Positions 4,583-60,944 of a DNA stretch of 64,000 nt are shown here, in pieces (positions within the stretch are counted from its first letter, which is position 1; every line of letters starts with the position of its first letter). This DNA is from Candidatus Micrarchaeia archaeon. Its GTDB lineage: Archaea; Micrarchaeota; Micrarchaeia; Anstonellales; Bilamarchaeaceae. The stretch is taken from assembly GCA_046331685.1 (NCBI GenBank), contig JAXLQI010000002.1, positions 34,630-98,629 of the forward strand, in the 5' to 3' direction. The notes under the pieces are model-generated. The model searched no databases and had not been told where the DNA came from. It saw only the letters and a program-made list of their open reading frames with translations. The position numbers and the translations under genes were made by a program.

Positions 4583-4583
4583 T

Positions 4584-4799
4584 GCTCCGTTCGTCTAGAC
4601 CGGTCAAGGATTATGGACTTTCATGCGCCTTTTGAAAAAAGGCGCCCCAAAACAGTCTGTTGCAAAACCCATCCGGGTTTTGGGCTCCCATACAGAGCCA
4701 TTTTTGCGAAAGCAAAAATTAGCAAGAATGTTTTTGGGCGCTTTTTACTAAAAAGCGCGAAGTCCTCCATCGACCTGGGTTCAAATCCCAGACGGAGCA
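4584..4799 (+). tRNA. tRNA-Glu(UUC) interrupted by a ~141-nt intron in the anticodon loop
   Basis: Acceptor GCTCCGT (4584-4590) pairs with ACGGAGC (4792-4798); discriminator A. D-arm has G.U wobbles as in archaeal tRNA-Glu. Anticodon stem ATGGA/TCCAT; loop CTTTCAT with anticodon TTC at 4620-4622. T-arm CTGGG-TTCAAAT-CCCAG. Intron is about 4625-4765. Folded by eye only. Confidence 0.7.
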
Positions 4800-4885
4800 A
4801 TCTTCCCCCATCAGCCACAGCACTCCCGAAACCTATCCGCTGAAATGCGATGCAATGATTATATTCCCCCTACGTCCTGAATCAG

Positions 4886-8764: not shown

Positions 8765-10912
8765 TCACCTGTACATGGTAGCCGCAGCGGCCTCGAAGCG
8801 CTGGACGCTCTCGACGTCCTCCTTCTTTATGCTCGGGACGATGGATTTGAAAGAGATCTCGAAGTGCCGGGCCACGACCTTCCGGGATCCTTCCCTTATC
8901 GCAGCCATGCCGGCCTCCCGGACGAGGTTCTCTATGTCCGCGCCGGTGTACCCTTCGGTGAGCCTTGAGAGGTCCTTCAGGTTCACGTCCTTGTCGAGGG
9001 GCATCCTCGCTGTCGCGATCTTGAATATGTCGAGCCTGGCGTTCTCGTCAGGCGGCAGTATCTTCATGAGGCGGTCGAAACGCCCTGCCCGCATGAGGGC
9101 GGGGTCCAGCATATCGGGCCTGTTGGTGGCGGCTATCACGACGACATTCTTGAGGCTCCGCAGGCCGTCCATCTCTGTGAGGAGGGTGTCGACTATCCTT
9201 TCGGTCACCATGGTCCCGGATTCGCCGTGCCCCCCCCTCCGGACAGCAATCGCATCTATCTCGTCTATGAATAGGACGCAGGGAGCGGCCATCCTGGCTT
9301 TCTTGAATATCTCGCGCACCGACCTCTCGGACTCTCCGACGTATTTGGTCAGGACCTGCGCCCCGCTGATCGATATGAAGTTGGCTTCGCTCTCGTTCGC
9401 GACAGCCTTCGCAAGCAGCGTCTTCCCGGTGCCCGGAGGGCCGTACAGGAGGATCCCCTTTATCGGGCGGATCCCCATCTTCTCGAAAACCTCGGGCTTC
9501 TTGAGCGGAAGCTCCACAGCCTCCATGATCTCCTTCTTGACCTCGGGCATGCCACCGATGTCGTTCCACCTGACGGTCGGCCGCTCGACATATACCTCGC
9601 GGAGCGCCGATGGCTGGATCTCATGCATCGCGTTGAAGAAGTCGTCCCGCATGACAACTATGGTCTCGAGGATCTGAGGCGAAAGGGTCTCCTCCTCTAT
9701 GTTTATGAGGGGCAACGCCCGGCGCATGGCCTTTATCGCGGCTTCCTTGGTCAGAAGCCCCAGGTCCGCCCCGGTGTATCCGTGGGTGACGTTCGCGATC
9801 TCGGTGATGTCGACATCCTTGGAAATCGGCATCACCCTGGTATGGATGCCCAGTATCTCGTTCCTCCCCCTCTTGTCAGGCACCCCTATCTCGATCTCGC
9901 GGTCGAAGCGGCCGGGCCTGCGGAGCGCCTGGTCAATCGATTCGGGCCTGTTGGTCGCTCCGATGACTATGACCTCGCCCCTGGTCTTGAGGCCGTCCAT
10001 GATTGTCAGGAGCTGGGAGACCATCCTCTTCTCTACCTCTCCCATCACCTCTTCGCGCTTCGGCGCGATGGCGTCTATCTCGTCGATGAATATTATGGAC
10101 GGCGCATTCTCCTGGGCTTCGGCGAACAGCTTGCGGAGGCGCTCTTCGCTCTCCCCGACGTACTTGCTGATGATCTCGGGCCCGCCGACATAGAAAAAGT
10201 TGGCATCGGACTCGTTCGCCACCGCTTTGGCTAGGAGCGTCTTCCCGGTCCCCGGGGCGCCGTAGAGCAGGATCCCCTTAGGCGGGTCGATCCCGAGCCT
10301 CTCGAATATCTCCGGGTGGCGGAGAGGGAGCTCGATCATCTCGCGGACTTTCTGGATGGTGTCCTTGAGGCCTCCGACATCGTCGTAAGTGACGTTCGGG
10401 ACGTTCTTCATCTCCTTGATGGGCTCCTTGTTTATCTTTATCTCGGTCTCCTCGCTTATCATGACCGGCCCCTGGGGGAACACCTGAGCCACGACAAGAG
10501 GTATCGAAGTGCCGAAAATCCCGACCGGAAGGAGGTTGCCTTTCAGGAGCGCTTTCCCGATTAGCCTTTTCTTGACATACTGGTCGAAGCCCACCGAATA
10601 CCTGACGGGCTCCTGCGGGGCGAGGACGACCTTCTTGGCGACCTTTGCGGTGACGGGCTCGGCCCGGACCTTCTCGCCAAGCCCCACGCCGACGTTCTGG
10701 CGCAGGATGCCGTCCATGCGGATCATGTCCAGCCCTTCGTCGTCAGGGTGGGCCTGCCACACGATGGCGAGCGCTGATTTCTTCCCGATGAGCTTGATTA
10801 TGTCTCCGGTCGATACCCCAAGCTCGCTTTTGGCCTTGGAGTCCACCCTCGCTATCCCTCTGCCTATATCATTCTGGAAAGCTTCAGCGACTTTCAGGGT
10901 AATAGATGGCAT
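8765..10912 (-). CDS. cdc48: CDC48/VCP-like AAA+ ATPase with two ATPase domains
   Basis: 715 aa; N-domain followed by two Walker A/B modules ('GAPGTGKTLLAKAVA', 'GPPGTGKTLLAKAVA') and SRH regions. Confidence 0.95.
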   Translation of the reverse strand: MPSITLKVAEAFQNDIGRGIARVDSKAKSELGVSTGDIIKLIGKKSALAIVWQAHPDDEGLDMIRMDGILRQNVGVGLGEKVRAEPVTAKVAKKVVLAPQEPVRYSVGFDQYVKKRLIGKALLKGNLLPVGIFGTSIPLVVAQVFPQGPVMISEETEIKINKEPIKEMKNVPNVTYDDVGGLKDTIQKVREMIELPLRHPEIFERLGIDPPKGILLYGAPGTGKTLLAKAVANESDANFFYVGGPEIISKYVGESEERLRKLFAEAQENAPSIIFIDEIDAIAPKREEVMGEVEKRMVSQLLTIMDGLKTRGEVIVIGATNRPESIDQALRRPGRFDREIEIGVPDKRGRNEILGIHTRVMPISKDVDITEIANVTHGYTGADLGLLTKEAAIKAMRRALPLINIEEETLSPQILETIVVMRDDFFNAMHEIQPSALREVYVERPTVRWNDIGGMPEVKKEIMEAVELPLKKPEVFEKMGIRPIKGILLYGPPGTGKTLLAKAVANESEANFISISGAQVLTKYVGESERSVREIFKKARMAAPCVLFIDEIDAIAVRRGGHGESGTMVTERIVDTLLTEMDGLRSLKNVVVIAATNRPDMLDPALMRAGRFDRLMKILPPDENARLDIFKIATARMPLDKDVNLKDLSRLTEGYTGADIENLVREAGMAAIREGSRKVVARHFEISFKSIVPSIKKEDVESVQRFEAAAATMYR

Positions 10913-14373: not shown

Positions 14374-14774
14374 GTCTCTTCGTTGGTTATCAGCACCTTC
14401 TCCAGGAGGGTGTGCGCGCGGCGCGGCTTATCGACCAGGAGCGCGATTATCGTGTGCTTGCCGTCCTTCGAGAGCGTGTGGACGGCCTGGAGGTTTATCC
14501 CTCCCTTCGCCAGCATATCGGTGAGCTTGCTCAGCTCTCCGGGGTCGTCGTTCAGCTTCACTACGAGCGAGTTGGCCTCTTCGACGGCGTACCCTGCCGC
14601 CTCCACGACCTGCTTCGCCTTCACATTATCAGCGACGCCGATAGAGATTATCGCTTTGCCGGCCACGACTTCGACGCTCACCGAGTCGATGTTGATCTTG
14701 GATTTCGCAAGGATATACGATATGTCGGCAAGAAGCCCGACCTTGTCGTCAGCAACCACAGTGATCGTTTTCAC
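14367..14774 (-). CDS. ACT-domain protein (tandem ACT)
   Basis: 135 aa; two beta-alpha-beta-beta-alpha-beta ACT-like repeats ('KVGLLADISYILA', 'GGINLQAVHTL'). Confidence 0.7.
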   Translation of the reverse strand: MKTITVVADDKVGLLADISYILAKSKINIDSVSVEVVAGKAIISIGVADNVKAKQVVEAAGYAVEEANSLVVKLNDDPGELSKLTDMLAKGGINLQAVHTLSKDGKHTIIALLVDKPRRAHTLLEKVLITNEETY

Positions 14775-14789
14775 ATCCCCACCTCTGGA

Positions 14790-15086
14790 TCATAATCTGT
14801 AAATCTGAATATATGGTGTCTTGTTTATATACATGACGTCATTTTTCCCGGCCAACCCTATCCCGATAGCCGTCGCGACCGATTCCTTGCCGACAATGTT
14901 GGCCGAGGAAAAACTCCCCAGGGCATCCTTCACTTCCCCGGGCCCTGCCTTGCCGCCCACATAGAAGCTCCGATAGCGGTCGAGGTCCATCACGATATCC
15001 TTCCCTTCCAGCACCTTGCCTATGAGGTCCTCGTCGCAAACAGCGACGATCCTCCCCTTCGGGCTCTCATGTATCCGCAGGTACAT
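14790..15086 (-). CDS. Small conserved hypothetical protein (about 98 aa)
   Basis: Only the C-terminal 98 aa of track ORF 14790..15572 have protein-like composition ('MYLRIHESPKGRIVAVCDEDLIGKVLEGKDIV...'). ATG confirmed at 15084-15086 on the minus strand. Confidence 0.5.
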   Translation of the reverse strand: MYLRIHESPKGRIVAVCDEDLIGKVLEGKDIVMDLDRYRSFYVGGKAGPGEVKDALGSFSSANIVGKESVATAIGIGLAGKNDVMYINKTPYIQIYRL

Positions 15087-20065: not shown

Positions 20066-20925
20066 CCGGACAATAAAAATGCAGGAGGAAGACCCTCAGA
20101 GCAGCTCTGAAGCCTGACCTTTCCTTAGCGCCCTGATGTCAAAATTGGCATCAAGCAAAATATAGTCGTCTGCTGGTAATGAGGCATAGTGAATATAGTC
20201 AAGAACGAAACAATTATAAACATAAATTATCACAAAATAAACCATGCTACGAGTACCTCTAAATAAAGCAATTCCGACAACACCAAGGAGGACTCTTGAT
20301 TTTGCCTTGGCGCCAAAAGGGCTGAAGCCGAAATTAAATGGCTTTTGAAAAGTACAATGAAGGTACGGAAGCTCGGAGCGAACCTGCCGAGCTTGCAGAT
20401 TATTGGTTTTTTGAGACGGTCGTGAGGCTGCACCGGGGCGGGGAAGGGGCCCCATACACGGGATTGAACCCGGTGGTGCTCGGCGGAAGCCCGGCGCTGC
20501 GGGCAGAACGCTGCATCGAGAAAGGAGATCCGAAGGAAGTGGTAGCGTTCCTGCACGTCACTGGGGTACAGATGCAGCGGATGTTCAAGGAAGCGATGGT
20601 AAAGAAAAGAATTAGTGATGAAAATGATGTTGACGCCGCACGTGAATATGTAGAAGCGATGCTTGGCTTCATATTGTATTCCCATGGCCCGTACAAGTGG
20701 CGATAAAGAGCGGAGGCCCCATGGTGAAAAGGGGAAGGAGGAGAACGCGGAGGCCACAAGCATTGAGTTTAGGAAAGCGATCTGATATTCGTTTTTGTGG
20801 GCGCGCTGAACGTACCTATCGGTCGTGCCCCTTGCAAGCAGAATTCCGCCCAATGGTTACAGTCCTGAACCATTAGTGGTATGCAGAGGAAGGACTTCAG
20901 AGCTGCTCTGAGGTCTGACCTTGGC
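20066..20925. mobile_element. Remnant (~0.8 kb) of an older integrated element, bounded by degenerate copies of the tRNA-Leu 3' end
   Basis: Degenerate tRNA-3'-end-like copies at about 20066-20125 and 20870-20925. Both carry the palindrome 'CAGAGC(A/T)GCTCTG' and match the 3' exon of tRNA-Leu(CAA) at 25730-25775. GC content drops from about 20000. Confidence 0.5.
20338..20706 (+). CDS. Hypothetical protein inside the element remnant
   Basis: 122-aa ORF with protein-like composition; no family recognised. Confidence 0.3.
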   Translation: MAFEKYNEGTEARSEPAELADYWFFETVVRLHRGGEGAPYTGLNPVVLGGSPALRAERCIEKGDPKEVVAFLHVTGVQMQRMFKEAMVKKRISDENDVDAAREYVEAMLGFILYSHGPYKWR

Positions 20926-21157
20926 AATATCCACTGTCCGACATTGACTGTAGCGAGCGAGGCTACGTTTTGTTCTGTTTTTAGTTTCTTGATGGTAAAT
21001 TTTGCATAACTCGACTTCGGAAATCAGTTGGTAGGTATAAGATAACGGGATTACTAATATTAACTGTCTCGTCCAACCAAGTAAAAACTTCGGAACAATA
21101 AACAAAGTCAATGCAATACAAAGATGGTAAAGAAAACATATCAACTAAAGGTGCCTT

Positions 21158-21595
21158 TTAAACGAGACAAACCATGAACATTTCGAAGTATCTCAAATTA
21201 ATAAATAGAAAATACAGATACAATGTGGTAATGCTATCAGAAATGGGATATGATATAAAAAGGCAGAGATGATCACGCCTAGAATCGTTGGTGGGACGAT
21301 TGCAACCCAACTGCCCAAGATCACGGCTGACCACAGCCAGCAGCCCAGACGGAAAGAAGACTTGCAAGAAAAGGAATATGATAAGCAAAGGAGACGATAT
21401 CGAATAAATGACCAGAGAAGAAAAGGTATAACAATGTAAATAATCTAGGTAGCGTGCTTTGCCCCCAACCCGTTTACCAATGAAAAATATTAACCAAGGA
21501 AAAAAGGTATAATCACCAAAACTTGATAAATATGACAACGGTGCCCAGCATGACTTTGGAAAAATCCCCATAATCTGCACCTTGCGAGTATTCAT
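21158..21595 (-). CDS. Hypothetical small membrane protein in the low-GC element
   Basis: 145 aa; very hydrophobic (I/L/F-rich) with 3-4 TM-like segments. AT-rich codon usage, so it may be a spurious ORF. Confidence 0.3.
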   Translation of the reverse strand: MNTRKVQIMGIFPKSCWAPLSYLSSFGDYTFFPWLIFFIGKRVGGKARYLDYLHCYTFSSLVIYSISSPLLIIFLFLQVFFPSGLLAVVSRDLGQLGCNRPTNDSRRDHLCLFISYPISDSITTLYLYFLFINLRYFEMFMVCLV

Positions 21596-22774
21596 TCATT
21601 ATAAAAGGAAGACCTATTACCAATGCAAGAAATGAGGGAAACATTGCGGCACACTAGATTTCTTATGATGATAGACCAAGAGGCATTGGAAAGCTCTTTC
21701 TGACAAATCATTCATTTTGTTTGGGCGAAGAAAAGAATGAACAAATCCCATATTTGCATGGATGTGTATTAGTTGGTTGGGTAATTAAACCCTTCATAGA
21801 TCCCTCTTTTTTAAGCTCTGCTTCTCAGAACAGTACTCGGCGAGATGATCTTACTCTCGCATAAAATTTGTTATCGTAGCAGATGTGGCCTTCAGACCTG
21901 CGATCTGTTCTGAGTTCCTCAGGACAGACGAACTGGATCTGAGGTTCCCAAGCGGGTAAGATCTCAGACCAGATCTGAATGCAGGAGGGAAAACGCTGAG
22001 CCCAGGGCTCAGAACAGAGCCGTTCAAAGACCCGTCCGATTGGTTCGAAACTTCCCTCCCGTAATAACCATTTGGTTCAGGTCAGAACAGAGTCCCGTTT
22101 TGACCTCTCAACCGAGTGGCCGCTCTGGTTGGAGAGCTATATAAAGTTATGGCTCAACAATATTTTCTATGGCAAAACCAATAATTGAGGCTTGCAAACT
22201 GTCCCCGGCAACTCAAATTTGGGATTACAGCTGCCGTTGCATTGCGAAGTTCTGGGCTGAATTCTTCCGGGCTCTGTTAGAGGATTTATTCAAAGGAGTA
22301 CTGCTAATCTTTTATCCGATTGCTACCGCAGATTTTTTTACTGCTATCCTGGCCTCGGTTTTGCTATGCGATACTGCTTTTTTACCGGAAAATTACTTTA
22401 TGGCTTAAGAAAGTCAAAGTGTGATAAATATTAAGATATAACTGTCTGTGATGGCACGTGTGGCTTAAGGCCTGACTCCCCTCAATATTTCCTTTGAAAT
22501 TACTTTTGCCGCCCTTTCCCTGTCCCGGGAACCCGACTATGTCGATGGTCTGGGATGCGAGCTGTATCCCATCTGTCTTCTGCACCTCTTCAGGATGCGG
22601 CCGCTCAGTCGATTGAATGTCTGGCGCCTCAACCGACTTCGGCAACATAACGAATGCTCATCGATATCCAATTATCCGTCAGCTTGATGAATATCTGGGG
22701 TTCGACATCCTTCTGCTGGAAGAAGTATTTCTCTCCCATGCCGGCCAGTTCCTTCGAGGCTTTTTTCACGGTCT

Positions 22775-23450
22775 CTAGCGTTTCTTTCCTTGCAACGTCT
22801 GAAAAAGGGTTATGGCCTTTTCCAATCGCTGTCGTATGTCACTGAACCCAAATTTCATCCCAGATGAATTCATGGTCTTTAGCAGTATAGTTTTGTATAA
22901 TCCCTGAAATGACATGGCTATTCGGGATGATCGTGAGCCTGCCTGTAGCCTGGTCGCCTTCAATCCATTCCCTCGTCTCAAGCAATGTCGTGTAAAAGAT
23001 ACCTATATTGACAACATCCCCATAGACAGAGTCTATCTGGACGCGGTCTCCGACCGAATAAACCCGCGTGAGAAGGAGTATTGCGCCCCCCGCCATATTT
23101 TTAAAAACATCCTGAAGGGCTATTGCGATGGCCGCGGCAATGAGGCCGTATGCTACGAGAATTGCCTCCGGGTTAGGGATCCATATCGTTATCACGACTG
23201 CGATGACGACAATTGCATTGATGATGGAGACTATCCTTCGAAGCTCGAACTTCCTGCGGCTGTCCTTCACAGTCCCTGTGATGGCGTCTTCGACCACTAT
23301 CTTGAAGATGGCGTATACCACCGCCAATGCAGCGAAGGTGTAAAATGCTTTCAGAAGGTACTCATTCTGATATACTGAGTTCGCATACCAAAGAGCTGCG
23401 GATGCAATGAGCAGCCCTGTGAACACCAGAACCTTTCTGATTGAAATCAA
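22775..23450 (-). pseudogene. MscS-family mechanosensitive channel, C-terminally frameshifted or truncated
   Basis: ORF 22839..23450 has the MscS TM3 and beta-domain signature ('DRVQIDSVYGDVVNIGIFYTTLLE...IIPNS') but ends prematurely after '...EFIW'. The continuation ('GFSDIRQRLEKAI', compare E. coli 'YDSDIDQVKQIL') lies in another frame (ORF 22775..22981), then stops again. Confidence 0.5.
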
Positions 23451-23525
23451 ATTTACACCCTGGTTTCTTGGTCAGAAGAGAGGCACAACCAAAGTTTATA
23501 AAATATCGTGCGTAGCAGGTAAGAT

Positions 23526-23933
23526 GTGCCTATGTTCAAAGAGCGAGAAGGAACGAAAATGAGGAAGGTGATGCGGCGACCGGGCAGCCAGGTTGCCAGA
23601 AGACGGCCAGAAAATGTTAAAAGATGCATTTACTGCGGGAAACGCGTTGTCCGCTTTTTTTGGAAATATGGGAAGAAGATTTCGTGCTACTCCTGTCACT
23701 TTCGCCATGCTTCGAGCATAAAACGCAGTAAGAAGAAAATTTCTGGAAATCTTAAGCAAGATGATATGAATCGGAGTTTACGAAGGGCTGCGCGTCGCGA
23801 GTGGATTGTTCAGCCTGACCAGAGGGTTATTGAAAATCTTGAGGGTCCGGGTTCCGGTCCGCCAAAGCGCAGAAAACAGAGGCCGTTCAGAAAATTGCGC
23901 AATGCCTTGAAGATTGAGGGAATACAATACTGA
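23526..23933 (+). CDS. Small, highly basic Zn-ribbon protein
   Basis: 135 aa; pI clearly basic (many R/K); 'CIYCGKR...CYSCH' zinc-ribbon-like Cys pairs; inside the element. Confidence 0.4.
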   Translation: MPMFKEREGTKMRKVMRRPGSQVARRRPENVKRCIYCGKRVVRFFWKYGKKISCYSCHFRHASSIKRSKKKISGNLKQDDMNRSLRRAARREWIVQPDQRVIENLEGPGSGPPKRRKQRPFRKLRNALKIEGIQY

Positions 23934-24029
23934 TGGATTCAGACAGGATTGGCTGGCACAATAAAATAATAGATTCGCCTTTCTTGAATTACTGCGAGAG
24001 ATAGCGCCTAATTCTGCGATTTTCAAATA

Positions 24030-24340
24030 AATTTTGACCTGTATTTGGTCAAAATTATTTAAGGAAAGTTTTGAACTCGCTGTTTGACCTCACGCAGGGG
24101 TTCTCCGTGCAACCAAGATCATGAATGTCGTAATTCTGGAAAGTGCTTTCCCGTATGAAGGTCAAAAAGATATCGGATGGGCCTAGATAAAAATCATTTT
24201 GAGCCATTCTTGCATATCTCAAAGAGATGGCTTCTATCTCCTTGATTTCCACTCAAATTTTGACCTGTTTCTGGTCAAAATTTTTCGAGGAAAAATTTGA
24301 CCTAATGATTTTGACCTCATAGGTCAGAATGAAGCTGGCC
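24030..24340. repeat. Iteron-like array of TTTGACC half-sites, including two 33-bp near-identical palindromic units
   Basis: 'AAATTTTGACCTGTATTTGGTCAAAAT' at about 24036 and 'AAATTTTGACCTGTTTCTGGTCAAAAT' at about 24253. More TTTGACC/GGTCAAA copies at about 24085, 24300, 24313 and 24322 ('TTTGACCTCATAGGTCAGA'). Lies between the integrase 3' end and the Zn-ribbon gene. Confidence 0.6.
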
Positions 24341-24343
24341 CAT

Positions 24344-25561
24344 TCATTGAAAGCTATTGTTTAGCCCCATCTCGAAAATCTTGCGGAGCATCATGTCCTT
24401 GAACTCATTATCCTGCATCAGCCGGTTCATGATGCCATCGGTAGCTTGCCGGTCCTTCTCAAGAGAGAAGATAAGGTTCTCATCGAGAGGCAGACCGCAT
24501 TTAACGCAGTATTTGGAGGCTGGAGAGTTGTTCTCCTTGCAGCGCTGGCAGCTCTTGGCCTTGATTTTTTCCTCTTGGCTTACCTCGTCATGGGCAAGGC
24601 CTTGCAGCTTCAAGAGCGCATTATCCACGTCGCGCCCGCTCAGATGGACATACGTAGAAGCCATATCCGAACCTTGAACCCACCCAAAGTATTCTTTCAT
24701 CTGCGCCTCCGTGAGCTTTCCGGCCAGCGCCGTAGCTCTGGAGTGGCGGAAAAGATGGGGGTGGATATGCTTCTTTATGCCAGCCTTGTCTGCCAGATTC
24801 CGCAGGAGCTTATAGACTGAGCGGTGGTCCATGCACTGAATCATGTTCTTTGTCTTCCATTTCGCGCACTTGGGCGGCCAAAGTGGGGCGTTCGGCTCGT
24901 CCTTTCTTCGATAGTTATCGACCCATTGGGCCAAAGCGGGCGCAGAGCTGATTATCCTTACCCTTCTATCTCCTGTTTTGCCGGTAACCCTCAGGACTGC
25001 CCCGTATTGGTCGAATTTGACGTTTTGCATACTGAGGGTGAGTATTTCCCCTATCCGGCACCCGGATTCGTATAAAACCAATACAAACGCCTTATCCCTT
25101 GGGTTTTCGGCTTGGCTGACTATCCTAAGGACTTCGTCCTCTGTCAAAAGGTCTTCAGGCAGCTTGTGTTTCTCGTTTTTCAGCTTGGGTTTCAGCCAGC
25201 TTATCTCCGGCGGGAAAGTCTCATCGTTGCCTTTGAGCCACTTATAGAACATCTTAAGGACGATTTTGAAGTCAAGGCGGGTATATTCCGCGTATTTGGG
25301 GTTGTTTTCAAGTCCCCCGACCAAGGTAATGAGATCCTCCTTTGTGGCCTTTCCGAACGGCTTGTTTAGCCATCCTGCAAGGAATCTTAGGCAATATACG
25401 ACCTTTGCCACACGGCCATGAGTCGCCCCCTTCGCCAAGCGGATTTTAGAAAAAGCGATGATGCTTTCCTTGTTCTCTTTGCTAACCGCCCGGTCTTTAT
25501 TGAGGTTTTCTATCGCCAGTTCAAGACGCCTGGGATAGTTGTATAGACCAAATCCATCCAT
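24344..25561 (-). CDS. int: Tyrosine recombinase / phage-type integrase
   Basis: 405 aa; C-terminal catalytic domain with R...HxxR...Y ('HLFRHSRATAL...STYVHL'); N-terminal SAM-like domain; followed by a C-terminal Zn-ribbon-like extension (CQRC...C..C). Confidence 0.9.
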   Translation of the reverse strand: MDGFGLYNYPRRLELAIENLNKDRAVSKENKESIIAFSKIRLAKGATHGRVAKVVYCLRFLAGWLNKPFGKATKEDLITLVGGLENNPKYAEYTRLDFKIVLKMFYKWLKGNDETFPPEISWLKPKLKNEKHKLPEDLLTEDEVLRIVSQAENPRDKAFVLVLYESGCRIGEILTLSMQNVKFDQYGAVLRVTGKTGDRRVRIISSAPALAQWVDNYRRKDEPNAPLWPPKCAKWKTKNMIQCMDHRSVYKLLRNLADKAGIKKHIHPHLFRHSRATALAGKLTEAQMKEYFGWVQGSDMASTYVHLSGRDVDNALLKLQGLAHDEVSQEEKIKAKSCQRCKENNSPASKYCVKCGLPLDENLIFSLEKDRQATDGIMNRLMQDNEFKDMMLRKIFEMGLNNSFQ

Positions 25562-25729
25562 GTTTTCACTCCGGCTGGAGGTCTATTTTAGGGTTCCGAC
25601 AAATCGACGCTTCGATTTGTGGACCATTAAATTGCCCCCGTCTTTTTGCAGTTTCTGGGCAATTTAATTGGTCGTGCCCCTTTGGGCAGAATTCTGCCCA
25701 ATGGTTACAGACCCGAACCAAAAAGATGA

Positions 25730-25922
25730 TGCAGGAGGAAGGATTCGAACCTTCGAAGGCGCTGAGCCAACAGATCTCCCAAACCGCGTTTGGAAAGGGA
25801 AAATAACGCAGCTAATCCGGCCTCCTGAAACCTCTGGCTTTTCGCGGGCATTTTGCCCTTAGAAAAGCGGAGGTCAAAAGGCCCCTTGAGTCTGCCACGT
25901 TTGACCGCTTCGCTACTCCTGC
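25730..25922 (-). tRNA. tRNA-Leu(CAA), class II, interrupted by a ~109-nt intron
   Basis: Minus strand: acceptor GCAGGAG (comp. 25916-25922) pairs with CTCCTGC (comp. 25731-25737); discriminator A. Anticodon stem GCAGA/TCTGT (one G.U); loop CTCAAGA, anticodon CAA (comp. 25886-25888). 15-nt variable arm; T-arm GAAGG-TTCGAAT-CCTTC. Intron about 25776-25884. Its 3' exon is the sequence duplicated at the element boundaries. Confidence 0.65.
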
Positions 25923-60708: not shown

Positions 60709-60712
60709 TTTT

Positions 60713-60870
60713 GCTGACGTCGCATAACCTGGTAGTGCGCCGGTCTTGAATCCCGCCTTTTAGTAAAAGGCGGGCCCAAAACTGGGTTGTTTGCGAACCC
60801 CATCGGGGTTTGCCAACTAACAAAAAAACCGGTCCCTTCGGGATCGCAGGTTCAAATCCTGCCGTCAGCG
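60713..60870 (+). tRNA. tRNA-Ser(UGA), class II, with a 76-nt intron in the anticodon loop
   Basis: Acceptor GCTGACG/CGTCAGC; discriminator G. D-arm GCAT-AACCTGGTA-GTGC. Anticodon stem CCGGT/ACCGG; loop CTTGAAA, anticodon TGA (60747-60749). 13-nt variable hairpin (TCCC-TTC-GGGA); T-arm GCAGG-TTCAAAT-CCTGC. Intron 60751-60826. Confidence 0.65.
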
Positions 60871-60944
60871 TTTTCTTTATTCATATGCTCGCCAGCGGCT
60901 CGCATTATCAGCGATCGTCCCTAGATAGCAGAACAGATGACAAT

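Follow-up and report, generated by a model that had tools for sequence, protein, structure and literature searches.

A block of 5,650 bp (20080-25729) lies between the 3′ end of a tRNA-Leu(CAA) gene, at 25730, and an outermost repeat of that end, at 20080, in the window, by which we mean the whole analysed stretch of 64,000 nucleotides from a Micrarchaeon. The GC content of the block is 46.1%, against 58.5% and 58.6% in two 10-kb flanks, with values of 40%, 47% and 50% in its segments. An earlier note on this DNA had recognized the low GC content, but its figure of about 40% over 20.0-25.7 kb applies only to 20.9-22.0 kb. It had also placed the insert downstream of marR-emrAB; this operon lies on the minus strand, and the insert therefore adjoins its 5′ (promoter) side. 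The gene content that it listed (integrase, basic zinc-ribbon ORF, repeats, decayed MscS gene and hydrophobic ORF) was found in full. The target gene and the segment beside it, E1, hold the following features:

25730-25922, minus strand: tRNA-Leu(CAA) gene (Rfam tRNA model; ARAGORN with introns), with exon 1 at 25885-25922, an intron of 109 nt at 25776-25884 and exon 2 at 25730-25775
25730-25742, minus strand: att core, the tRNA 3′ end, plus-strand letters TGCAGGAGGAAGG
21990-25729: segment E1, 3.7 kb, with intact integrase, putative promoter arm, iteron-like cluster and orphan or decayed cargo
25562-25729, minus strand: arm A, element DNA between the core and the integrase gene
24344-25561, minus strand: intact tyrosine integrase of 405 aa (PF00589, E = 1.7e-20)
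23957-24321, minus strand: iteron-like cluster of two ~135-nt units, 23957-24094 and 24183-24321
23526-23933, plus strand: orphan basic zinc-ribbon ORF (CxxC...CxxC) of 135 aa
22382-23450, minus strand: MscS mechanosensitive-channel pseudogene (PF00924, E = 9.7e-14)

The tRNA-Leu(CAA) gene is the integration target and forms the attL side. It scores 40.1 bits on the minus strand with the Rfam tRNA model, whose gathering score is 29, and as it lies above this threshold with full acceptor and T arms it has stayed intact after the insertion. ARAGORN found no tRNA at the locus in its default mode; with introns allowed (-i) it gave the same span and the 109-nt intron, but named the gene Ser(CGA). 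The Leu(CAA) identity is based on splicing at 37/38, which agrees with a manually read bulge-helix-bulge, together with the discriminator A and a conserved CUCAAG, which is kept in the relatives L078-L080. The fold forced into the bulge-helix-bulge pairing lies 3.3 kcal/mol above the MFE.

The integrase ORF is of full length compared with its homologues, and the core lies 168 nt upstream of its ATG. The candidate catalytic residues are R169, K195, H269-x-x-R272, W294 and Y304, all of them invariant among 28 aligned sequences, and the C terminus carries a zinc ribbon (C338, C341, C352 and C355), which gives a weak domain match. The closest solved structures are archaeal XerA (4a8e and 5hxy), and the XerA model NF040815 gives 99 bits against a cut-off of 220. 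These features identify the enzyme, at the level of its sequence, as a Xer-like tyrosine recombinase. Of the three placements suggested earlier (pNOB8, SSV or XerA-like), the Xer-like one holds, while the HxxR motif and the intact gene speak against the SSV and pNOB8 types.

Each ~135-nt unit of the iteron-like cluster contains four GGTCAAAA boxes, two of them forming TTTTGACC-N7-GGTCAAAA. Six of the nine window matches to TTTTGACC fall within 24.0-24.3 kb, where 1.1 would be expected by chance in the whole window, and the cluster is a candidate set of protein-binding sites. In a profile search the unit was found only in the window, in L009 and L012 (mean identity 80%) and partly in L017; the repeats are conserved in three genomes, and an initiator gene, as expected beside an iteron-type replication origin, is not recognizable. 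The zinc-ribbon ORF has no match in Pfam, PHROG or NCBIfam and only two weak matches among 1.84 billion representatives. The MscS gene is split over three reading frames, and its fragments align to a single 314-aa ORF of L020 with 68-76% identity. No replication, excisionase or transfer genes are recognizable in E1.

Core copies, arms and remnants

The final 10-13 nt of the tRNA stand four times in the region in direct orientation (at 25730, 21980, 20882 and 20080). On the tRNA strand the att core reads CCTTCCTCCTGCA and comprises the 3′ strands of the T stem and the acceptor together with the discriminator. The features beyond E1, and those at its outer end, are:

22042-22119, plus strand: inverted att-like site, with the tRNA-3′-end-like GGTTCGAAACTTCCCTCCCGTA at 22042-22063 followed by an arm
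21996-22012: palindrome beside copy 2, CTGAGCCC-A-GGGCTCAG
21980-21989, minus strand: core copy 2, TGCAGGAGGG on the plus strand, 10 nt only, read from the sequence
20894-21979: segment E2, 1.1 kb, ~40% GC, integrase absent
20897-20911, minus strand: copy 1 palindrome TCAGAGCTGCTCTGA
20882-20893, minus strand: core copy 1, TGCAGAGGAAGG on the plus strand
20093-20881: segment E3, 0.8 kb, integrase lost, att arms kept
20820-20881, minus strand: arm B, a second copy of the putative promoter/operator arm, not followed by an integrase gene
20338-20706, plus strand: DUF6448 gene fragment in E3, N-terminally truncated (PF20046, E = 3.5e-26)
20096-20110, plus strand: copy 0 palindrome TCAGAGCAGCTCTGA
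20080-20092, listed on the plus strand: core copy 0, TGCAGGAGGAAGA on the plus strand; the outermost att site, with host sequence starting at 20079

The three direct copies of the tRNA end described in the earlier note are real, but it had missed both the fourth at 21980-21989 and the inverted one at 22042-22063, and of the ~60 bp that it assigned to the repeat only ~13 nt are identical to the tRNA itself. Copies 0 and 1 resemble each other (84% over 37 nt), and the palindrome TCAGAGC-N-GCTCTGA stands beside both. The alternative that these repeats are a common intergenic family does not hold within the window, where eight of the nine matches to TCAGARCWG lie within 20.1-22.1 kb. Copy 2 has homology on both sides: its flank at 21940-21989 aligns to L024 9860-9904 and L014 6830-6880, and its palindrome side to L002 and L084. 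By its sequence, copy 2 appears to be the boundary between E1 and E2. The integrase-bearing unit accordingly measures 3.7 kb instead of the ~4.8 kb implied by the earlier note, with the hydrophobic ORFs in the separate 1.1-kb segment.

Simple tandem insertion does not account for the inverted site beside copy 2, which is 74% complementary to 25710-25751 over 42 nt. The arm of this site begins with TTTGGTTCAGGTC, holds CAACCGAGTGG and shares its motifs with junctions in L009, L021, L014 and L024; the inverted-core arrangement is found also in L002 and L084.

Arm A contains TTTGGTTCGGGTC, the palindrome GGGCAGAATTCTGCCC, GGGGCACGA, the TATA-like box CCCTAAAATAG and a GGAGTG ribosome-binding site. 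It is 94% identical to L001 9858-9967, except for a 75-nt insert with two hairpins (25597-25671) that is missing from L001, and its layout recurs ahead of the integrase at most of 77 genome loci. Between 20820-20881 and 25668-25729 the best block matches at 32/35 positions (91%), compared with 24/35 in 20 shuffles of the 7-kb region, confirming that ~60-bp arms next to the att sites are conserved between elements. These arms are predicted to be the integrase promoter/operator region. A second type of putative integrase promoter lies beyond copy 0, within 20080-20198 on the plus strand, where TGATGTCAAAATTGGCATCA is followed by a TATA-like box AAAATATAG. The integrase start behind it is decayed, with ATG changed to ATA at 20186-20188, and the gene is cut off after ~15 nt, with homology ending near 20198. 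This region is 77-82% identical over ~90-120 nt to DNA directly upstream of the integrases in L014, L024 and L064; L042 ends in a copy of ~74% identity.

E2 carries hydrophobic ORFs on the minus strand (21158-21595) and an arm at 21800-21979 with TCAGAACAG boxes at 21825 and 21905; further such boxes stand across the core in E1, at 22009 and 22082. The DUF6448 fragment in E3 covers profile positions 35-147 of 147. Each end of E3 holds the apparent remains of an integrase promoter; the two differ in type and face each other, so E3 is probably two elements fused by deletion.

Empty site and integrase family

The relative L078 is syntenic on both sides of the locus, with 70-79% DNA identity, and has the order GTPase-CutA-TrmI-Fer2-tRNA-Leu(CAA, 107-nt intron), ~180 nt, then marR-emrA-MFS. 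At this tRNA-Leu(CAA) locus the 5,650-bp block, its integrase and the DUF6448 fragment are all absent, and copy 0 in the window lies ~165 nt from marR, in the place of the tRNA end in L078. The empty tRNA-Leu site for which the earlier note had looked to relatives thus exists, and its claim of integration survives. The empty site shows the insertion of 5.65 kb as a whole; a division into three or four events is suggested by the internal cores and the arm homology. In L080 and L081 the same tRNA is followed by a 175-nt scar that includes a second copy of the core, and no integrase is present at the syntenic locus in L078-L081.

Homologues of the integrase number more than 3,000, and the best matches with a named source are nearly all from Micrarchaeota/DPANN; identity is 56-89% among the top 120, and several genomes or MAGs carry two to four copies. 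Among the 77 genome loci, 21 have a tRNA detectable by ARAGORN that ends 60-260 nt upstream on the same strand, and 13 of these are tRNA-Leu. Elements of 4.4-9.5 kb bounded by 12-22-nt direct repeats of a tRNA end were found in L009, L012, L017, L021, L027, L030, L039, L040, L041 and L045, with tandem arrays in L014, L024 and L072 and probable ones in L002, L043 and L044. In the closest relative, L001, an attR was sought within 11 kb and not found. Both layouts, with the integrase beside the tRNA or at the far end, are known in the family. Its cargo varies and is non-viral, including a type IIG restriction-modification enzyme, an HNH nuclease, a Na/H exchanger and a HEPN protein (all by Pfam). 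We found no published description of the family.

The low-GC block is foreign DNA, a stack of one integrase-carrying mobile element and two or more decayed ones, and represents an ordinary type of genomic island derived from a widespread integrase family. The proposal of a tandem integration hotspot at tRNA-Leu(CAA) with an older ~0.8-kb remnant stands, while its count of two elements and their boundaries give way to four direct cores and at least three segments.

Origin of the inserted block

Direct observations are the insertion by comparison with the empty site, the repeats and conserved arms, an intact integrase and the association of its family with tRNA ends. With little doubt, in our judgement, the block arose as a stack of small integrative elements through sequential site-specific recombination by the Xer-like tyrosine integrase. 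From the workings of tyrosine recombinases, the attP of an element would carry a 10-13-nt core identical to the last tRNA bases; strand exchange within this core would place the element behind the tRNA and rebuild an intact tRNA, leaving a second core copy at the far end. Since the rebuilt tRNA could be used again, newer elements would lie next to it and older ones be pushed outward, and E2 and E3 would have lost their integrases while keeping recognizable att arms. The mobility of E1, the position of the crossover and the order of events are inferred.

A single composite island of 5.65 kb, acquired in one event and with the internal cores belonging to a complex attP or regulatory region, would agree with the relatives, in which the insert is either complete or missing and intermediates are not seen, and with the presence of extra core-like sequences inside elements of the family, of which the inverted-core module (L002, L084 and the window) is an example. 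We consider it unlikely, as the internal cores are each flanked on both sides by arms that end separate elements in other genomes, the segments differ in GC, tandem arrays are common in the integrase family, and the two integrase promoters and truncated integrase start of E3 would be needless in a single functional element. In the earlier note, copies 0 and 1 are read as tRNA 3′ halves that were duplicated and then turned into palindromes by mutation at this locus. Aligned to the variable-arm/T-arm region of the tRNA, they do match it at scattered positions outside the 13-nt core (GGyTCAG..CC...), and the att arm may descend from an ancient tRNA copy, as the tRNA-sized module with acceptor-like inverted ends suggests. 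However, the palindrome-bearing sequence running into the promoter ('core + CCTCAGAGCAGCTCTGAGGTCTGACC + promoter') stands directly upstream of integrase genes in the unrelated L014, L024 and L064, with a copy at the end of L042, which marks it as an att arm carried by the element. Palindromes of other sequence occupy the corresponding position in other elements, and 43% of 28 sites have perfect arms of at least 6 bp, compared with 5.6% of random 35-mers. The palindrome thus belongs to the elements, and its origin at this locus is highly improbable.

That the recombinase is host XerA or another housekeeping enzyme, and the block ordinary variable host DNA, is scarcely credible. Some database records label homologues 'XerA', the closest models and structures are Xer proteins, and the family is unusually conserved; against this, the score of 99 bits falls below the XerA cut-off of 220, genomes carry two to four copies, and the integrase consistently adjoins tRNA ends with direct repeats and is missing from the syntenic locus in L078-L081.

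Alongside the stacking of elements, a more speculative idea, which we regard as rather doubtful, is that the att region is a tRNA-sized pseudo-tRNA, with an inverted core pair, a palindrome able to form a hairpin at the T-arm position and a 13-nt crossover core. If so, a single integrase could accommodate both orientations of insertion, and integrase-less mini-elements with both arms kept, like E2 and E3, could move in trans as satellites. It is an old idea that tRNA introns protect tRNA genes against integrating elements. In the intron-rich tRNA genes targeted by this family all intron positions are 5′ of the very short core, and some of the genes have a T-loop intron directly before it, so the family would permit a direct test of intron protection.

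Comparison with known systems

By its catalytic residues, intact gene, direct repeats and the empty site in a relative, E1 fits the classical (type II, non-suicidal) class of archaeal integrative elements, which includes the pNOB8 and SNJ2 types (PMC8371274). It shares with them an intact integrase gene, a tRNA 3′ target and flanking direct repeats, and tandem integration at one locus, as proposed here, is a known phenomenon. Unlike the pNOB8 integrase, with its YxxR motif, that of E1 has HxxR (PMC8371274). The core of 10-13 nt is shorter than the 40-60 bp of pNOB8-type, suicidal and Methanococcales integrases (PMC8371274), and the Xer-like enzyme with a C-terminal zinc ribbon differs from those of classical elements. 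The Micrarchaeota/DPANN hosts are not mentioned in that review (PMC8371274). Integrated elements of Thaumarchaeota, as cited there, have an att identity of 8 bp (Krupovic et al. 2019, cited in PMC8371274), and as far as this account goes they are alike in short att, small cargo elements and uncultured archaeal hosts, while the host phylum differs.

Other classes fit less well. The gene is intact, unlike in the SSV type (type I), and matched only PF00589 and, weakly, a zinc ribbon, PF16795 not being found; the motif H269-L-F-R272, invariant in the family, stands against the R...YxxR...Y of pNOB8-type integrases. PHROGs matched only the integrase and IMG/VR gave one distant partial match, arguing against a provirus, and VirB4/TraC-type ATPase and pilin genes of an integrative conjugative element are absent from the window element. 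Pfam matches to conjugation-type genes do occur in L085, beside a 78%-identical integrase. A XerA chromosome-dimer resolvase was rejected on the NF040815 cut-off and the multiple copies. No solved structures are closer to the catalytic domain than XerA of Pyrococcus abyssi and Thermoplasma acidophilum (4a8e and 5hxy; E = 3e-15 and 1.4e-10). The integrase differs from them in its length (~100 residues more), an added zinc ribbon and C-terminal extension, its multiple copies and its place on a mobile element.

Bacterial tRNA islands with tandem accretion likewise have an integrase beside the tRNA 3′ end and variable cargo (defence, transporters), and their decayed remnants, with the integrase lost, accumulate on the side away from the tRNA. 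Compared with these, the elements described here have an archaeal host, an intron-bearing target tRNA, an archaeal TATA-like box and a much smaller size (0.8-9.5 kb).

Target tRNA and its empty counterpart

The target of integration in this Candidatus Micrarchaeia MAG is an intron-bearing tRNA gene (25730-25922, minus strand) that the Rfam tRNA model recovers at 40.1 bits and in which ARAGORN, with introns allowed, places a 109-nt intron. We read it as tRNA-Leu(CAA), because splicing at the canonical 37/38 position gives the loop CUCAAGA, the hand-read splice sites occupy 3-nt bulges on both sides of a helix of 4 bp (C32-A35 with UGGG), A stands at the discriminator position, and the homologous genes of the syntenic contigs L078, L079 and L080 keep CUCAAG. 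ARAGORN's own call, Ser(CGA), was dropped in favour of Leu(CAA). The bulge-helix-bulge is absent from the unconstrained MFE fold of the pre-tRNA, and a fold constrained to it lies 3.3 kcal/mol above the MFE; the sequence is compatible with such pairing. A match to TTTTGACC within the intron (25872) was ruled out as part of an element, since L078, whose site is empty, carries a comparable TTTTTGAC at the corresponding point of its intron.

Finding the tRNAs of the window requires the intron mode of ARAGORN or the Rfam model: ARAGORN -i gives introns of 141, 109 and 76 nt in genes at 4583-4800 (+), 25730-25922 (-) and 60712-60871 (+), and the default mode reports no tRNA in the window, missing all three. 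Neither a 3'-end repeat nor a low-GC block lies behind the first and last of these. Additional introns interrupt related tRNA-Leu genes at non-canonical sites (D loop, variable arm and T loop), as judged by eye from intron-less homologues; several of the tRNAs next to integrases have, again by eye, a T-loop intron directly 5' of the att core, the repeated tRNA end.

tRNA-Leu relatives with extra introns
L079, 11019-11222
L080, 11042-11256
L066, about 9830-9910
L083, about 9740-9910
L008, about 60-130

Multi-intron tRNAs upstream of integrases in L008, L010, L066 and L083 are missed by Rfam at the gathering threshold. In the closest relative, integrase locus L001, a second copy of the tRNA's initial 15 nt (GCAGGAGTAGCGAAG) and of the stretch preceding them lies about 165 nt upstream of the gene (9582-9639 and 9791-9828), and a small insertion or rearrangement may have taken place at the 5' end of this tRNA.

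A search started from homologues of the neighbouring TrmI gene led to syntenic contigs of related Micrarchaeota. One of these, L078, shares 70-79% DNA identity with the window on both sides of the insert and has the order GTPase, CutA, TrmI, Fer2, tRNA-Leu(CAA; 107-nt intron), about 180 nt, marR, emrA and MFS pump, with neither integrase nor repeated core at this locus; a relative with an empty site therefore exists. Copy 0, the tRNA-end repeat at 20080, lies about 165 nt from marR, the position of the tRNA end in L078, and 5,650 bp (25730 minus 20080) are therefore extra in the window. Their GC content is 46.1%, against 58.5% and 58.6% in the 10-kb flanks. The earlier note placed the elements downstream of marR-emrAB; because this operon is on the minus strand, the insert in fact lies on its promoter side. 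Protein-level synteny of the flanks with the 77 integrase loci came to a single Fer2 match, and none of these loci supplied an empty site. Two further contigs, L080 (11250-11440) and L081, carry a 175-nt scar behind the same tRNA-Leu with a second core copy, TCAAATCCTCTCCCTGCA, and no integrase there.

Repeated cores, arms and proposed order of insertion

The tRNA end recurs through the insert as follows.

25730-25742: the 13-nt tRNA end itself (plus strand, TGCAGGAGGAAGG)
20080-20092: copy 0, same orientation, one mismatch to the tRNA end
20882-20893: copy 1, same orientation, one deletion relative to the tRNA end
21980-21989: core 2, same orientation, TGCAGGAGGG
22042-22063: inverted copy, retaining a T-loop-like GGTTCGAAAC

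Integrase cleavage would fall within the core stretch CCTTCCTCCTGCA. The repeats at 25730, 20882 and 20080 were located exactly, in one orientation, as had been proposed from the sequence; the proposed total of three overlooked core 2 and the inverted copy. Copies 0 and 1 are 84% identical over 37 nt and both contain TCAGAGC-N-GCTCTGA. Eight of the nine TCAGARCWG motifs in the 64-kb window fall within 20.1-22.1 kb, and the 13-mer core is not a dispersed repeat across it, which argues against a common intergenic family. The likeness of the att-adjacent arms also held: the best block between 20820-20881 (arm B) and 25668-25729 matches at 32 of 35 positions, against a maximum of 24 of 35 in 20 shuffles.

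Nearly every integrase is preceded by a TATA-like box, TAAAATAG, and a GGAG-type ribosome-binding site, and farther upstream by a palindrome of type GGGCAGAATTCTGCCC or GGCAC-N4-GTGCC. The conserved 60-bp arm of the earlier note is precisely this integrase promoter/operator region; arm A, next to the core of the tRNA-proximal segment E1, is 94% identical to L001. Between the operator palindrome and the TATA-like box of the window integrase sits a 75-nt insert (25597-25671) with two hairpins (CCAATTAAATTGCCC...GGGGCAATTTAATGG; CACAAATCGA...TCGATTTGTCG), missing in L001 and with a similar piece in L003; neither the window nor the loci contain another copy.

Two layouts recur. In type A, to which E1 belongs, the tRNA reads into the core, then the arm, then the integrase. 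In type B an antisense core is positioned a short distance upstream of the integrase; CCTCAGAGCAGCTCTGAGGTCTGACC and a TGATGTCAAATTTGGCATCA palindrome come after this core, and the tRNA lies at the element's far end (L014, L021, L039, L041). Copy 0 and the next ~105 nt (20078-20198) are 77-82% identical to the type-B upstream regions of L014, L024 and L064 and about 74% identical to a copy at the end of L042; the homology includes the first integrase bases, with ATG decayed to ATA, and then stops. Copies 0 and 1 had been taken for tRNA ends mutated to a palindrome, a view that this match overturns: because 20078-20198 resembles integrase-upstream regions, the palindrome is an att arm carried in by an element, and a truncated integrase follows it. 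Perfect palindrome arms of at least 6 bp occur at 43% of 28 junctions (35 nt on that side of the core; sites not all independent), against 5.6% of random 35-mers. They differ in sequence between junctions and occupy the T arm's place in the tRNA.

Core 2 is bordered on one side by TAAGATCTCAGACCAGATCTGAA, which aligns with the junctions of L024 and L014, and on the other by a palindrome-rich stretch that ends in the inverted core and aligns with sequence directly upstream of arm plus integrase in L002 and L084. On account of both flanks, the insert was divided into three segments.

E1, 21990-25729: 3.7 kb, 47% GC; integrase, iteron units, zinc-ribbon ORF, MscS pseudogene, ORF79
E2, 20894-21979: 1.1 kb, 40% GC; hydrophobic ORFs
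E3, 20093-20881: 0.8 kb, 50% GC; truncated DUF6448 gene

E3 pairs a type-A promoter arm with, at its opposite end, a type-B promoter and integrase stub; it is probably two elements joined through deletion, which would imply at least four insertion events. The youngest element would be nearest the tRNA, an order that follows from reuse of the rebuilt tRNA. Of the proposed successive integration of two elements the stacking stands; the number becomes three segments and probably at least four events.

The integrase family and its cargo

24344-25561, minus strand: integrase, 405 aa, Phage_integrase domain

The integrase is identical (100%) to an NCBI protein, and a set of 28 homologues shows no variation at R169, K195, H269-x-x-R272, W294, Y304 or the four cysteines of the zinc ribbon. 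There are more than 3,000 homologues; the top 120 show 56-89% identity, one being a 295-aa fragment with only 73% of the query aligned, and those of them with names come almost all from Micrarchaeota. A scan limited to a single genome for each species yielded 77 loci, frequently with 2-4 in the same MAG. ARAGORN places a same-strand tRNA ending 60-260 nt upstream of the integrase in 21 of these 77; 13 are tRNA-Leu and the others are called Glu, Thr, Pro, Ser, Cys or Pyl, some calls being doubtful. Elements of 4.4-9.5 kb bounded by 12-22-nt direct repeats of the tRNA end occur in ten loci (L009, L012, L017, L021, L027, L030, L039, L040, L041, L045), and multi-copy arrays in L014, L024 and L072 and probably also in L002, L043 and L044. 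No attR was found for L001 in the 11 kb searched. The window locus, together with its empty-site relative, is a clean anchor for this large, well-conserved family.

Cargo is not conserved across the loci. Among its ORFs are some with Pfam matches to a type IIG restriction-modification enzyme, a HEPN protein, an HNH nuclease and a Na/H exchanger, and one with a weak AbiH-like match; for the ORFs in the window element, protein relatives at the loci exist for the integrase and MscS alone. The zinc-ribbon ORF has no family and gave two weak matches by exhaustive search. As IMG/VR holds no real relative of the integrase, the elements are small cargo islands and not recognisable viruses.

Two copies of an iteron-like unit of about 135 nt, each with four GGTCAAAA boxes, lie in E1; their conservation with the L009 and L012 units is 80%, that of the surrounding DNA being much lower. 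The two units are adjacent in L009 and about 90 nt apart in the window. They may act as an origin or serve as a site for partition or regulation; no initiator gene is recognisable, and the adjacent zinc-ribbon ORF is an orphan. In L012 (11570-12665) the two units flank an HNH endonuclease gene with homing-endonuclease repeats, which appears to have been inserted between the units. The inverted-core module has the size of a tRNA, its acceptor-like inverted ends at real tRNA-gene spacing, and may be a decayed tRNA copy within attP; that it enables integration in both orientations is speculation.

Two other loci carry unusual neighbours. In L085 (602-12076) a 78%-identical integrase lies behind tRNA-Leu(TAA), and downstream ORFs match, in Pfam, an AsnC regulator, Cdc6/Orc1-type ATPases, a 1000-aa VirB4/TraC-type ATPase, a T4SS pilin/TrbC and a DNA methylase. 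By its gene content this is a conjugative-type element in a Micrarchaeon, and because of the Cdc6/Orc1, VirB4/TraC and T4SS pilin matches the family may also serve such elements. Some 3.4 kb downstream of the L066 integrase there is an RT-16 RNA (reverse-transcriptase-associated; 14640-14801, 71.5 bits against a gathering threshold of 50), which is possibly cargo of the element there.

Relation to known systems

The observation as a whole, comprising repeats, arms and insertion relative to L078, is confirmed, and the hotspot interpretation was right in essence, its origin for the palindrome and its element count excepted. For annotation, the low-GC block is explained, pseudogenes are flagged (MscS, DUF6448, truncated integrase), and the intron-bearing target tRNAs needed for island detection are seen to escape default tRNA finders. 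The mobile elements of DPANN archaea are poorly described; here a family moves small cargo islands among Micrarchaeota, with defence genes and transporters in the cargo. It is undescribed in the full-text literature searched and in a 2021 review of archaeal tyrosine recombinases.

Of the types suggested for the integrase (pNOB8, SSV or XerA-like), two do not apply: this enzyme has neither the YxxR motif by which pNOB8-type integrases are recognised nor the domain characteristic of suicidal SSV/pTN3-type ones (both PMC8371274). Archaeal XerA proteins are its nearest solved relatives, and against the XerA model it scores 99 bits, with a cut-off of 220. Tandemly arrayed integrative elements that target a tRNA make up the locus; they are of a known and unsurprising kind, and the locus belongs to a large Micrarchaeota integrase family.
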